64,000 nt of DNA from Bryobacteraceae bacterium (GCA_050015835.1 JBEKAQ010000005.1:12013-76012), one strand, 5' to 3'. Shown: positions 38,374-42,511, counted from the stretch's first letter. Notes: generated by a model from the sequence alone, not told the origin. Numbers and translations: made by a program.

Positions 38374-39411
38374 CTATTGTGTCAACAAGAGGTCCGGGTT
38401 CGCAACAGCATTCGCAAGGTGTCCGCCGCTTTGGCGCAATCGCCACAGACCGACGAGGCCCCAGAACGTGATTACGACGTAAGTGGACGCCTGCAACAGC
38501 AGAATATAGGCGATCGCATCGGTCCGCGCGATGCCGAACGGCGTAAGCACGCTCACTGCTACAAACTGGTAAATTCCAACGTATCCCGGAGTCGATGGCA
38601 GGGCGCTCCCAAGGCCCAGGCCGGTGATGAGCAGAAAGGCGATCGGAATATTGAGTGCGAGTCCCATGGCGCGGCCGACGAAGATGGCGCCGGTGGCATC
38701 GATGCACCAGATTACGATGGTCAGGCCGAGGAAACCGGCCATCCTCCCCGGATCGTGAAAACTGCGGATGCCGTGTACGATCTGCCCGATCAGATGCGCG
38801 AGTTTCTTGTTGAGGCCATCGGGTAAAGCCACCCGTGACAGCAGCCGCAGCGCCAAAGGCTCGAGCCAGGGCAGAACCGCGATGGCCACCACGGCGCCGA
38901 TGCCCGCAATGGCGAACGGCTTCGCCGCACTGGCCAGCCAACCGGGCTGCGAGGGAAGAGTCAGAAGCACCAGCGCGCTGATGGTGACGAGCGCAATGGC
39001 ATCCGCCATTCTCTCCGACAGCGCCGTAGTCAGGACGAAGGCCTTACCCAGACCGGCGCGCGCGCCGATCATCATGGTACGCACCACTTCCCCGGCGCGG
39101 GCGGGAAGAAAGTTGTTGCCGAAATAGCCCGCCGCGGTGGCCCAGAATGCGGTGGAGATCCTGACGTCACCCGCCGCGCGGAGCAGGATGCGCCAACGGT
39201 AAGCGCGCAAGAACAGGGCGGTGCTGGCCAGCAGGCAAATGGCCCCCAACCAGGACAGGTGCGCGGTGCCGAGGATTAAGCCGACCCTGCGCCACTCGAT
39301 CCCGCGCAGCGAATAGTACAGGAGCACCGCGGCGAGCGCAATGGATCCGGCGGTGACGGCAATCTTCAGGCCATGACGCTTCGTGGAGGTTTCCGGCGGG
39401 GCCGCGATCAC
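38374..39411 (-). CDS. flippase-like / lysylphosphatidylglycerol-synthase TM-region (UPF0104) family membrane protein
   Basis: About 8 TM helices with the typical N-terminal pattern YYSLRGIEW... Confidence 0.65.
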   Translation of the reverse strand: MIAAPPETSTKRHGLKIAVTAGSIALAAVLLYYSLRGIEWRRVGLILGTAHLSWLGAICLLASTALFLRAYRWRILLRAAGDVRISTAFWATAAGYFGNNFLPARAGEVVRTMMIGARAGLGKAFVLTTALSERMADAIALVTISALVLLTLPSQPGWLASAAKPFAIAGIGAVVAIAVLPWLEPLALRLLSRVALPDGLNKKLAHLIGQIVHGIRSFHDPGRMAGFLGLTIVIWCIDATGAIFVGRAMGLALNIPIAFLLITGLGLGSALPSTPGYVGIYQFVAVSVLTPFGIARTDAIAYILLLQASTYVVITFWGLVGLWRLRQSGGHLANAVANPDLLLTQ

Positions 39412-39572
39412 GCCCTTTATGATGGCAGGTTAACGCCCCCGGCCGGAAGTAGACTTTGGGTAATCTTCCGACGCGATGACCCGGGCAGTCGCGCCCGATA
39501 GTTGAAACCGCCGCCAAACCCGCCGCTAACATGAGCGCCGCAAGACATTCTCCGTCCATGACCCCTTCTTAG

Positions 39573-39597
39573 GGCAATTATATAGTTGGCTAAAGTT
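39573..39597. repeat. IS left terminal inverted repeat
   Basis: GGCAATTATATAGTTGGCTAAAGTT. Confidence 0.85.
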
Positions 39598-39862
39598 ACG
39601 CGGCTCTATGGGGTGGAACTTGGCGTAGCGCGATGTCGCCACACGACGTGCAGCGTGCGACATGGCTTTGTGGTGCGAAGTTCCCATGCTCGCCTTCGCA
39701 AAATCCGCGATGGCATGTTGCACAGTAGCGCAATGTGAGGCGTATGCGCCGAAACGCATTCTGACATATTCGGCACGGCACCCAGATTCCTCCAGATATC
39801 TTCTGGCGGTCGTTTTGGCTTGGATCGAACTCACTCAGATCGGTTGGCACAGCAGGGGACAT
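39596..39862 (-). CDS. Cys-rich small protein (putative zinc ribbon), IS passenger
   Basis: Three CxxC pairs (CRIC, CATC, CTSC). A GGAAAGG Shine-Dalgarno lies 6 nt before the ATG. The gene starts 14 nt after the upstream stop, and its stop codon lies inside the left inverted repeat. Confidence 0.45.
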   Translation of the reverse strand: MSPAVPTDLSEFDPSQNDRQKISGGIWVPCRICQNAFRRIRLTLRYCATCHRGFCEGEHGNFAPQSHVARCTSCGDIALRQVPPHRAA

Positions 39863-39876
39863 AGTAGCCTTTCCGT

Positions 39877-40068
39877 TCAGGCGGGTTTCTTCGCCCGCCT
39901 CCGCGCCCGCGACCGCTTCTCCTGCGCTTCCGCCTTCAGCACGGCTTCCTTCGAGACCGTCAGCGATGCGCGGACGCCACGGTCGAACCTGTCGAACTGA
40001 TCGGGCCGTTCGCAGCGCAGCGCGAGAGCGGCGATGGTTTCGGCTTGCGTCGGTGTTGGTTTCGTCAC
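39877..40068 (-). CDS. small basic-tailed hypothetical protein, IS passenger
   Basis: 63 aa with a GTG start 7 nt after the upstream stop. The C-terminus is a lysine/arginine-rich tail (KRSRARRRAKKPA). Confidence 0.45.
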   Translation of the reverse strand: MTKPTPTQAETIAALALRCERPDQFDRFDRGVRASLTVSKEAVLKAEAQEKRSRARRRAKKPA

Positions 40069-40075
40069 TGTTACC

Positions 40076-40381
40076 TCAAAACGGGGCGCAATCGTCGCCC
40101 GCTACTTCCCCGCCAAGCAGTCGAACTTCTTTGTCCGAACAGGTGAAGAAAACTCGTAGTGCCGGTAGATCTGAAGTATTCACGGTTTTAGCCATAGAAA
40201 GATGCGTTCCAGGGAGCATCTCGAATTCCTCTGGAGAACGCGCCAACGCAAAAATCAAAGCTTCCATAACCTCATCGATACGCTTATAGGACACCTTCAG
40301 CGACTTCAGGAGATCTGTGAATTCCGGCTCCTCGCGAACCGTCCGTAGGTTAAGCGATGACAAGGTTATGGCTTTTCGCAA
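40076..40381 (-). CDS. hypothetical 101-aa protein, candidate toxin partner of the Panacea-domain gene
   Basis: TTG start overlapping the last 32 nt of the upstream DUF4065 gene. The C-terminal LPALRVFFTCSDKEVRLLGGEV resembles RelE/ParE-type terminal strands, but this is only an inference. Confidence 0.5.
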   Translation of the reverse strand: MRKAITLSSLNLRTVREEPEFTDLLKSLKVSYKRIDEVMEALIFALARSPEEFEMLPGTHLSMAKTVNTSDLPALRVFFTCSDKEVRLLGGEVAGDDCAPF

Positions 40382-40916
40382 ACCGAAGGCCTCTCTGTTT
40401 GTCTTCTGCCGTCAGCGGTTGGCTGGACAAAAATACCGTCGCATAAGGTATTGTTTCGTTGTCGCGCGCCACTATCCAGCCCATCATTCGATGGCTCAAC
40501 TCGCTGGCTGTTTCCGCATTGGCCATCGCGAGCCCTTCGATCACCTGATCTACTTGGGCGATTTCCTCCGCCGAGAAAACGGAAAGGTCTGGTCGTCTAA
40601 GATTGACCGTCCGATGCTGGATGTTTCCGTTCCGGAGGGATTTGGCCTGTATGCCCAAGATGCCCTCCTTGAGCATCTTGGCCCTAATCGGCAAGAGTTT
40701 TCTTGGGCACGGACCATTCGGAAGCTTCTGGTATTCAAAACCAGTGATTGGACTCCCAGTATTCCCATAGTGGTAGAAATCTGAGAAGTACAGTATTTTG
40801 TTTAACTTAGTAGCGCCAAATGTGGGATCATCGGCGCATTTCTGGCTGATGTAGAGGATTAGTTCTCGGAACTTTCGCTCATCCTCTGCGTGTTGATGTC
40901 GTGTCGTCGTTGGCAT
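40350..40916 (-). CDS. Panacea (DUF4065, SocA-like) domain protein, antitoxin-type
   Basis: TKLNKILYFSDFYHYGNTGSPITGFEYQKLPNGPCP matches the DUF4065 core pattern (KLxKLLYf...G.P.t...y....GP). A Shine-Dalgarno GAGAGGA lies upstream. Confidence 0.75.
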   Translation of the reverse strand: MPTTTRHQHAEDERKFRELILYISQKCADDPTFGATKLNKILYFSDFYHYGNTGSPITGFEYQKLPNGPCPRKLLPIRAKMLKEGILGIQAKSLRNGNIQHRTVNLRRPDLSVFSAEEIAQVDQVIEGLAMANAETASELSHRMMGWIVARDNETIPYATVFLSSQPLTAEDKQRGLRFAKSHNLVIA

Positions 40917-41076
40917 TTTTGGTGTCCTCTCTTTCCATTATGGCGAAGAAAAGGAGAAGATCGCTACAACAGGAGAACGCAATTGCTTATTATGTTACAT
41001 CTATCCGCAGTGGAAAAGTGTGGGACCAGAAAGGATTTTAACGTTTCCCACGTAAAGGTTTACGATACGGAAGCTT

Positions 41077-42042
41077 TCACGGCTGCGCTTCCATCGTCTT
41101 GCCGGTAAGTTGATCGTACATGATCCGCTTGCCGACGATCCCGCGCACGGCGATGTCAAAGCGCTCTGCGTCCGTCATGTGGCGATTATTGAACCGGTAC
41201 GTTTGCTCATCCAGGTATCGGAACAAGTGGAACGGCTCGACCGAAACGTATGTCCCGTGAAGGCTGCGCTTCAGCAGCGACCAGAAGTTTTCGCAGCCAT
41301 TCGTGTGGCAGGTGTCTTTCACGTACTCTACTGCGTGGTCCACAACCTGATGCTTGAATTCGTCCAAACCCTCATACGACTTCAGAGAGTCCGTATAGAT
41401 CGCCGATCCGGCCTGAACATGCTCACGGACTTCAGCCTGAAGCGCTTTTTTCCGGCGGTTCGCAACCACCTTCGTGCGTATCTGGCTGGGCCTTCCATCC
41501 TTCCCACGTTCCAGAATCCCCATGACCATAGTTTTATCCTTGCCGCCAGTACCCGTGATCTTCCGCGCCCTCACGTCCTTGTGCATATTCCGGGCCTTCT
41601 GCCCGATGAACGTCTCGTCTGCCTCGACTTCGCCGGTCAGTTTATCAGGTGTCGCGAGACCGAACGATAACCGAATCCGATGGTCCAGAAACCACGCCGT
41701 CTTCTGTGTAATGTTCAGCGCCCGCGCGATTTCGCATGAACTGATGCCGTTCTTGCAGTTGGTAATCAGCCAGGTTGCCGTGAGCCACTTGTCCAGGCCG
41801 AGCGGACTTTCCTCGTAGATCGTTCCAGTCTTCAGGGAGAACTGCTGTTTCGGGTGCTGGTTCGGGCACCACCAGCGGTTCTGATTCGCCAGGAACTTCA
41901 CTTCCTTGCAGCCGCAAGTGGGGCAGGTTACGCCATCCGGCCAGCGCCGCCGCACCAAGTAGTCACGGCAGTTGTCAGGATTGGCGAAGTAAACGATGGC
42001 TTCCTGAAGGCTGATCGGCTCTGGACTTGTTGCTCTTTCCAT
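41077..42042 (-). CDS. IS1595-family transposase
   Basis: N-terminal transposase zinc ribbon (RRRWPDGVTCPTCGC...WWCPN). The DDE_Tnp_IS1595 region contains DETFIGQKARNMH, IYTDSLKSYEGL, HTNGCENFWSLLKRSLHGTY and RFNNR. Confidence 0.92.
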   Translation of the reverse strand: MERATSPEPISLQEAIVYFANPDNCRDYLVRRRWPDGVTCPTCGCKEVKFLANQNRWWCPNQHPKQQFSLKTGTIYEESPLGLDKWLTATWLITNCKNGISSCEIARALNITQKTAWFLDHRIRLSFGLATPDKLTGEVEADETFIGQKARNMHKDVRARKITGTGGKDKTMVMGILERGKDGRPSQIRTKVVANRRKKALQAEVREHVQAGSAIYTDSLKSYEGLDEFKHQVVDHAVEYVKDTCHTNGCENFWSLLKRSLHGTYVSVEPFHLFRYLDEQTYRFNNRHMTDAERFDIAVRGIVGKRIMYDQLTGKTMEAQP

Positions 42043-42065
42043 GCTTTAATTATAGGGCTTGGAGC

Positions 42066-42090
42066 AACTTTAGTCAACTATATAATTGCC
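42066..42090. repeat. IS right terminal inverted repeat
   Basis: AACTTTAGTCAACTATATAATTGCC, the reverse complement of the left repeat apart from one G/A difference. Confidence 0.85.
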
Positions 42091-42098
42091 CTTCTTAG

Positions 42099-42446
42099 CC
42101 CTTTGGAGGTGGGCTTCCGGAACACCAGAGAATTGCCTTGAATTCGTTGAATGGTGGATGCCCGGAATAACCAGGCTGGCGCTTTCCGGGCGGCCAGCGC
42201 CAGGCTAAACGAAAGCGGCGACGGGGACTCCGCGACCTTCTATCTCCAGCAACTGTGATTCCTGCGCGCAAGTTTCCTGCCCGCAAGGTTCTGCCGGCAT
42301 CGGATGTTCCGGGGCTGAGCGGCACTTCGTACCCGGCTTCCTCTGCCTTCCTGAGTAGTTCTCCGTTTTCAGGTTCATGCCAGCCAATCCGCTCCAACGA
42401 CGAGATCAGGGAAGTCTTCGACGTGACGCTGGAGGAAGCGCCTCAT
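42099..42446 (-). pseudogene. decayed remnant of a small PIN-like (Mut7-C/DUF5615-type) gene
   Basis: Recognisable pieces lie in different minus-strand frames: RIGWHEPENGELLRKAEEAGYEV in one and RNIRCRQNLAGRKLA in another. An upstream ATG-initiated piece terminates after 23 codons. Confidence 0.35.
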
Positions 42447-42511
42447 GAGCGAGCGGCGGCTTCCATCGAAATCCCCCGCCGCCGGGCCGCTTTGTGATAG
42501 CGTACGGCGGT

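Follow-up and report, generated by a model that had tools for sequence, protein, structure and literature searches.

An IS1595-family transporter insertion sequence with a predicted PanA-type toxin–antitoxin pair in a Bryobacteraceae genome, and its relatives in the Acidobacteriota

A 64,000-nucleotide stretch of DNA from a Bryobacteraceae bacterium (GCA_050015835.1, JBEKAQ010000005.1:12013-76012; hereafter the window, with positions counted from its first nucleotide) contains a region that had been interpreted, from sequence alone, as an apparently intact insertion sequence (IS) of the IS1595 family with a recent, probably still mobile, four-gene cargo. We conclude with considerable confidence that this region is a single-copy, structurally intact IS1595-family transporter IS (tIS) which carries a predicted toxin–antitoxin (TA) pair, formed by PanA and the adjacent open reading frame (ORF) ORF101, along with two other small genes, ORF63 and ORF88, and that it belongs to a large clade of such elements in the Acidobacteriota. 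The element is a correctly classified example of an already known class, the IS1595 tIS. Its features are listed in Table 1.

Table 1. Coordinates of the IS1595-family element and its parts in the window
Feature	Position	Strand	Length	Basis or remark
IS1595-family element	39573-42090		2,518 bp	Repeat-to-repeat span
Target-site duplication, left copy, CTTCTTAG	39565-39572	none	8 bp	Read directly
Terminal inverted repeat, transposase-distal, GGCAATTATATAGTTGGCTAAAGTT	39573-39597	+	25 nt	Position 17 is G (TTGGCT)
ORF88, small Cys/His-rich protein	39596-39862	-	88 aa	13 homologues
ORF63, small basic helical protein	39877-40068	-	63 aa	Family profile
ORF101, toxin candidate, predicted RelE/ParE fold	40076-40381	-	101 aa	TTG start
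PanA, Panacea (SocA-like, DUF4065) domain antitoxin	40350-40916	-	188 aa	Pfam
AT-rich spacer, transposase gene to PanA	40917-41076	-	160 nt	G+C 0.42
IS1595-family DDE transposase, N-terminal zinc ribbon	41077-42042	-	321 aa	Pfam, NCBIfam
Putative near-consensus sigma-70-type promoter, TTGACT-17 nt-TATAAT	42049-42077	-		11 of 12 positions
Terminal inverted repeat, transposase-proximal, GGCAATTATATAGTTGACTAAAGTT on the minus strand	42066-42090	-	25 nt	Carries TTGACT
Target-site duplication, right copy, CTTCTTAG	42091-42098	none	8 bp	Read directly

Results

Ends and gene content of the element

The terminal inverted repeats agree at 24 of 25 positions, just as the sequence-only reading had described them, and a pair of this kind arose in none of 100 shuffles when up to three mismatches were allowed. 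Directly outside them lie the two identical copies of CTTCTTAG that had been taken for a target duplication. The octamer alone is weak evidence, because it occurs three times in the window against 0.5 expected; its weight comes from directly abutting both inverted repeats. The interior is AT-rich, as had been claimed, with a G+C content of 0.538 compared to 0.61 in the 3 kb on either side, although the composition is uneven (0.672 in ORF63, 0.419 in the spacer between the transposase gene and PanA).

Five ORFs occupy the element, all on the minus strand (Table 1). The last four are closely packed, with a 32-nt overlap, a 7-nt gap and a 14-nt gap in that order, and the ORF88 stop codon (39596-39598) shares two nucleotides with the inner edge of the left repeat; the original description of both features was accurate. 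All four are supported by homology, so the concern that they might lack any coding signal falls away. The space from the transposase gene to the distal repeat thus holds four homology-supported genes, the arrangement by which a tIS is defined. The insertion site is intergenic, upstream of a gene for an LPG_synthase_TM protein.

Relatives of the element and their cargo

One scan of GTDB representative genomes with the transposase returned 80 loci (L003-L082), nearly all in Acidobacteriota metagenome-assembled genomes (MAGs), whose transposases are 46-84% identical. To define the element ends, we matched a 20-nt arm upstream of the transposase gene to its reverse complement downstream. For 45 loci, each at a different genomic site, this gave a shared arm consensus, GGCAATAATATACTTGAC, and a perfect 8-bp duplication. 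Since 45 relatives have both, the repeats and the duplication are family features rather than coincidence, and the worry that the ends might be fortuitous is removed. These relatives measure 1,754-4,653 bp, and no bare IS of about 1.1 kb was found among them. The consensus of their duplications, CTAATTAG, is palindromic and AT-rich (C1 in 30, T2 in 28 and G8 in 31 of the 45), which implies a target preference; the window duplication agrees with it at 6 of 8 positions. Palindromic duplications often make the inverted repeats of this clade look longer than they really are.

For the cargo census, 76 passenger ORFs were compared with Pfam, and single look-ups were added; statements on cargo rest on ORFs with homology or Pfam support. 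The census includes GmrSD, DNA methyltransferases of the EcoRI, D12, C5, N6_N4, N6 and MT-A70 types, nucleases (BglII, Mrr and HNH), and AIPR, AAA_15/AAA_21, RelA_SpoT, SIR2_2, DUF4145, DUF3800, WapI and PanA. Judging by these domain matches, clade cargo is predicted to consist mainly of restriction, abortive-infection and TA genes. Near-identical backbones can carry different cargo, as seen in L103 (6007-8603). This locus has a transposase of the same 90% cluster as that of the window, with an EcoRI-type methylase, a GmrSD_N protein and a 62-aa terminal ORF in place of the PanA-type TA (PanAT) pair. The order common to the clade appears to be repeat, transposase, variable defence or TA cargo, ORF63-like gene, repeat. 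The clade is large and apparently undescribed; in the open-access literature, we found no paper that connects defence cargo or an ORF63-like gene with IS1595 elements.

Some further observations concern individual relatives. The ~290-aa passenger ORFs of the 2.1-kb elements were considered as one family, a grouping rejected after an iterative hidden Markov model (HMM) search placed them in several unrelated families; some match DUF3800. L035 (6993-8262, minus strand), the closest delimited relative, has additional genes between the transposase gene and the PanA, ORF101-like and ORF63-like genes: one for a methyltransferase of the MT-A70 type, with a DPPW motif, and one or two small ORFs. These additional ORFs probably explain the BglII-endonuclease match in the census and would be a small restriction–modification (RM) system. 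At L099-L102 (5001-5975), a 324-aa protein without a Pfam match (P0291) is listed in the transposase 90% cluster; its gene stands immediately before a 239-aa DDE_Tnp_IS1595 ORF and a gene for an EcoRI-type methylase, in a region with helicase and terminase genes. P0291 may owe its place in the cluster to an artefact, or it may be a transposase that was disrupted and fused within a phage-like element.

The transposase and its promoter

The transposase matches the Pfam model DDE_Tnp_IS1595 (PF12762) over model positions 1-153 of 153 (2.3e-40) and Zn_ribbon_IS1595 (PF12760) at 7.2e-07 (29.5 bits against a cutoff of 25.4). It also matches the NCBIfam model NF033547, IS1595 family transposase, at 2.7e-52 (177.8 bits against a cutoff of 75), and NCBI annotation in a Bryobacteraceae MAG gives the same name. 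By these matches, the initial assignment to IS1595, with zinc ribbon and DDE domain, was right. In an alignment of 79 sequences (the window transposase and 78 relatives), the catalytic residues D142, D218, E251 and K258 and the zinc-ribbon residues C40, C43 and C59 are each at least 97% conserved. All are present in the window transposase, which is full length compared with its homologues.

The −35 box of the putative transposase promoter lies inside the proximal repeat; 6 nt separate the end of the −10 box from the ATG. The promoter would therefore overlap the transposase's own binding site. TTGAC is the most conserved block of the clade repeat, found in 41 of the 45 transposase-proximal repeats. 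At the one position where the arms differ, the proximal arm has A and the distal arm G, and L035, with a transposase 84% identical to that of the window, differs there in the same way. Because L035 shares it, the mismatch cannot be used to date the insertion; rather than decay, it seems to be a conserved asymmetry by which only one repeat retains the −35 box. Loss of TTGAC from the distal repeat as a rule in plus-orientation elements was considered and rejected, as the pattern across relatives is mixed. A weak promoter-like site in the spacer (41016-40989, 9 of 12 consensus positions) is the likely start of a passenger transcript.

PanA and ORF101 form a candidate toxin–antitoxin pair

Residues 38-147 of PanA match the Pfam SocA_Panacea domain (PF13274; 1.8e-15, 58.3 bits against a cutoff of 25.7), and its NCBI name is type II TA system antitoxin SocA domain-containing protein. 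PanA homologues are encoded inside the elements L008 and L035 and beside the transposase gene in L058, a locus whose ends could not be delimited. In all three, the ORF101 family HMM reveals the gene order PanA, ORF101-family gene, ORF63-family gene. An unrelated metagenomic homologue, on a contig of 1.2 kb (L185), likewise has a SocA_Panacea gene followed by an ORF101-family gene, with a 23-nt overlap.

ORF101 starts at a TTG, either at 40381 or, in the 95-aa database version, at 40363. A word-indexed homologue search recovered only ORF101 itself, and an exhaustive HMMER search yielded 169 representative homologues of ~90-100 aa. An AlphaFold2 (AF2) model built on 100 family members (pLDDT 83, pTM 0.70) contains strand 14-17, helices 19-27 and 32-48, and strands 62-65, 75-81 and 85-93. 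One strand, two helices and a three-stranded sheet are the elements of the RelE/ParE fold. When the PDB was searched with this model using Foldseek, the top ~38 matches were nearly all ParE2, HigB2, RelE, YafQ or ParE, many at a probability of ~1.0, with TM-scores of about 0.5-0.63. The PanA–ORF101 pair shows the conservation used to recognize PanAT pairs. From the conserved adjacency, the predicted fold and the published ParE-type partners of PanA, we conclude that PanA and ORF101 are a putative type II TA pair with a RelE/ParE-fold toxin candidate.

ORF63 appears to belong to the backbone

Among the 80 related loci, 67 are matched by an HMM of the ORF63 family; for the 45 delimited relatives, the match falls within the element in 43. 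In the clade, the gene invariably follows the cargo and has the same orientation, placed either by the distal repeat, as in the window, or, where the passenger segment is inverted, by the 3' end of the transposase gene. DNA similarity between the window element and its closest relatives (L035, L008 and L003) is confined to three segments: the repeat with the adjoining transposase gene, ORF63, and the distal repeat. ORF63 is 73-78% identical and the transposase gene 74-78%; the PanA/ORF101 segment and the ORF88 segment have no DNA similarity.

A profile search returned 3,498 ORF63 homologues, none with a Pfam domain. Three of these, chosen without reference to the transposase, all adjoin an IS1595 transposase gene or a remnant of one, and each is the last gene, following an ORF of about 290-320 aa. 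The sample for this linkage consists of the three independent cases and the 80 loci, which were selected by transposase. Given its presence in 43 of 45 relatives, its transposase-like DNA conservation and its linkage to IS1595 transposases, ORF63 appears to be a backbone gene of the clade and not free cargo. The AF2 model of ORF63 has three helices, the C-terminal one long and basic (pLDDT 80); that the protein is a nucleic-acid-binding regulator would be a guess. At L025, L051, L074 and L076, a second ORF63-family gene lies 1-4 kb outside the delimited IS. Such genes suggest that copies of related elements, neighbouring or degraded, are present, as at insertion hot spots or in nested insertions.

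ORF88 is cargo of this element only

ORF88 has 13 homologues at 53-75% identity. C30, C33, C47, C50, C55 and H59 are invariant in the family, and C71 and C74 are at least 90% conserved, a pattern which makes ORF88 a probable zinc binder. The gene does not occur in any of the 80 IS loci related to the window element. A stretch of 63 bp separates the ORF63 homologue of L035 from the end of that element, and in the window element ORF88 occupies the corresponding gap; we take ORF88 to be a separate, later acquisition between ORF63 and the distal repeat. The question of whether related elements carry the same passengers, raised with the initial interpretation, therefore receives a divided answer: across the 80 loci, PanA, ORF101 and ORF63 types recur together in L008, L035 and L058, and ORF88 in none.

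Members of the ORF88 family (VPCRIC...RYCATC...FCEGEHGNF...C..CG) also occur elsewhere. At L083-L085 (5001-5267), in a genome of 4.5 Mb, the gene stands alone and is located upstream of one for a Flp/Fap pilin. At L086 (5001-5246), it lies on a prophage-like contig among small early-type genes, near genes for a serine recombinase, a terminase and a portal protein.

The insertion site and its surroundings

A search with the identical flanking LPG-synthase protein found one 1.4-kb contig (L002, Logan SRR13021853), whose nucleotides 1-8 equal window positions 39572-39565; this independent contig begins exactly with the target duplication and stops at the junction. A contig break at an IS junction is typical of a repeated or polymorphic element that branches the assembly graph. 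The empty site was sought by a metagenome scan with the flanking gene. The best relative (L104, 85% nucleotide identity) is syntenic on both sides and lacks the element. When L104 4908-4941 is compared with window 39466-39564 and 42099-42490, intergenic DNA is missing as well. Part of what is missing is an 80-aa ORF (42255-42497), annotated as a gene by JGI, and the insertion may lie in a strain-specific segment.

The LPG_synthase_TM gene (38374-39411, minus strand) is 154 bp beyond the element, and passenger transcription points at it. No terminator-like site was found in a scan of the minus strand between the passenger genes and this gene; therefore, read-through from the IS could drive or disturb the operon of LPG synthase and then NTP_transferase, a possible side effect of the insertion.

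Discussion

That the region is an intact tIS with a PanA/ORF101 pair has to be set against several observations that weigh on the other side. Beyond the element itself, neither another copy nor a solo end occurs in the 64-kb window at up to three mismatches, and the identical transposase was found elsewhere only at this same insertion, on one contig on record (L001). A precise empty site was not recovered; although L104 is a syntenic locus without the element, it also lacks about 500 bp around the insertion point, and the proposed empty-site comparison succeeded only to that extent. Both promoters are consensus matches only. For the TA pair, none of 41 ORF101-family members matches the Pfam RelE, ParE, HigB or YafQ model, the family profile finds nothing relevant among PDB sequences, and the fold match is moderate, with Foldseek E-values of 4e-3 and above and TM-scores of about 0.6. 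PADLOC models match none of the passengers, and ORF101, ORF63 and ORF88 have no match in Pfam, NCBIfam, PADLOC or PHROGs. Foldseek gives no structural match for the ORF63 model, and our searches yielded no functional assignment for ORF63 or ORF88.

Some of these findings would fit an immobile relic, an old insertion kept for its TA module with a transposase inactive in this lineage. The single copy in the window, the restriction of the identical transposase to this insertion, a PanA 90% cluster with one member, and the lack of an empty site among close relatives (the closest syntenic one having only 85% DNA identity) all point this way. We nonetheless consider a relic unlikely. The transposase is full length and retains every conserved catalytic and zinc-ribbon residue, and the repeats differ solely by what seems to be an inherited asymmetry. 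The duplication is perfect at 8 of 8 positions, whereas neutral decay over a long residence would have blurred it. Moreover, the contig L002 breaks exactly at the junction, and the transposase 90% cluster has 28 members on other contigs. The lack of the element in L104, which is otherwise syntenic at 85% nucleotide identity, also speaks for a recent insertion. The structural competence of the element is well supported; its current mobility is only plausible. Of the earlier claim that the insertion is recent and probably still mobile, then, the intactness of the transposase, catalytic residues, repeats and duplication stands, and the searches found neither a second copy nor a precise empty site.

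The passengers could instead be one functional system, such as a four-component defence system, that was captured once and has moved as a unit. The shared strand, the tight spacing, the absence of a minus-strand terminator-like site between the genes, and the order of PanA, ORF101-family and ORF63-family genes kept in three relatives are what such a system would lead one to expect. We regard it as quite improbable, as ORF63-family genes follow unrelated cargo (GmrSD, methyltransferases, AIPR, DUF3800) in 43 of 45 delimited elements, which ties ORF63 to the IS backbone and not to PanAT; ORF88 is missing from all relatives and is found elsewhere on its own; and the PanA–ORF101-family pair in L185 has no visible IS context, though that contig is only 1.2 kb. 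The four passengers first described as an operon moved as a unit are thus real genes, but they fall into three layers: the ORF63 backbone, the PanA/ORF101 cassette and ORF88. As for the repeats and octamer being a chance arrangement around an ordinary transposase gene, followed by ordinary chromosomal genes, the three occurrences of the octamer in the window are in its favour, and its probability is nevertheless negligible. The repeat pair was not matched in any shuffle, 45 independent relatives have homologous repeats and perfect 8-bp duplications at different sites, G+C falls from 0.61 to 0.54, and the segment is missing from the syntenic locus L104.

If the element is the intact tIS that we favour, the transposase, with its catalytic residues D142, D218, E251 and K258, would recognize the 25-nt repeats by a chemistry presumed from its family. 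The complete element of 2,518 bp would be inserted at an 8-bp target that is rich in AT and roughly palindromic, with duplication of that target (CTTCTTAG here, consensus CTAATTAG in the clade). The transposase would be transcribed from the TTGACT-17-TATAAT promoter and, since the −35 box lies inside the proximal repeat, repeat-bound transposase could repress its own synthesis. A downstream transcript would supply PanA as antitoxin and ORF101 as toxin of a PanAT-type pair, toxicity and neutralization being expected by analogy. Through post-segregational killing, such a pair would stabilize the element; alternatively, it would serve in abortive defence against phages. The ORF63-family gene would be the last of the clade cargo transcript and a conserved accessory component, its regulatory role a guess, and ORF88 would have been acquired between it and the distal repeat.

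More tentatively, the data may indicate an undescribed and very large IS1595 tIS clade, mainly in the Acidobacteriota, whose members are miniature self-mobile shuttles for single defence or TA systems. Unrelated cargo (RM, GmrSD, AIPR, toxSAS, SIR2, AAA_15/21 or PanAT) would always lie upstream of a conserved basic helical protein of 50-65 aa, possibly a new transposition- or cargo-associated factor. If this is true, the ORF63-type protein could, for example, link expression of the cargo to the element as a regulator, or take part in cargo capture. The at least 45 delimited relatives are minimal single-transposase elements with one defence or TA system and a conserved small protein; should ORF63 belong to the transposition or cargo machinery, the clade would offer a simple model for defence-gene mobilization in soil bacteria. 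The window element itself is a clean case of a PanA-type TA pair inside a delimited IS and bears on the published idea of transposon-driven partner swapping of PanAT. ORF101 adds a toxin-candidate family that is invisible to sequence models and has a predicted RelE/ParE fold.

Comparison with known systems

The element may belong to the ISNwi1 subgroup: its end, GGCAATTAT, fits the subgroup consensus (ggnnatTAT), its DDE-K motif (E251-x6-K258) also fits, and its 2.5-kb length lies in the range of passenger-carrying ISNwi1 members. Passenger-carrying IS1595 subgroups were reportedly defined in 2009 by Siguier, Gagnevin and Chandler. The window transposase is <40% identical to any annotated plasmid IS1595 transposase. 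The tIS has been described for IS1595 (bioRxiv 10.1101/2021.05.26.445724), and in the family members MTnSag1 and tISCpe8 the repeats are 25 bp, the duplications 8 bp, and a circular intermediate occurs (PMC5704250). The window element resembles these two in its single zinc-ribbon DDE transposase, ~25-bp repeats, 8-bp duplication and passengers inside the repeats. It differs in its cargo, a PanA/RelE-ParE-like TA pair with two small proteins rather than a resistance or mobilization gene.

PanAT pairs often lie near transposases, usually with the antitoxin gene first, and ParE is among the partner toxins; three-gene architectures with an accessory gene are also known (Kurata et al. 2022, PMC8832971). 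In the window, PanA is likewise just upstream of, and overlaps, a small toxin-candidate gene. This pair differs in that ORF101 matches no Pfam toxin family, its link to RelE/ParE coming from the predicted fold, and in that it sits inside the repeats of a delimited IS and not merely near a transposase.

Transposons with addiction or defence cargo are represented by the Tn3 family, which is cited as carrying TA modules (Lima-Mendez et al. 2020, as cited in PMC8832971), and by Tn7-like transposons with defence cargo (Benler et al. 2021, PMC8649781). The window clade shares with them this type of cargo, which is highly variable and rich in RM, abortive-infection and TA genes. Unlike them, its elements are much smaller, at 1.75-4.65 kb, rely on a single IS-type transposase of another family and carry a conserved small terminal gene.

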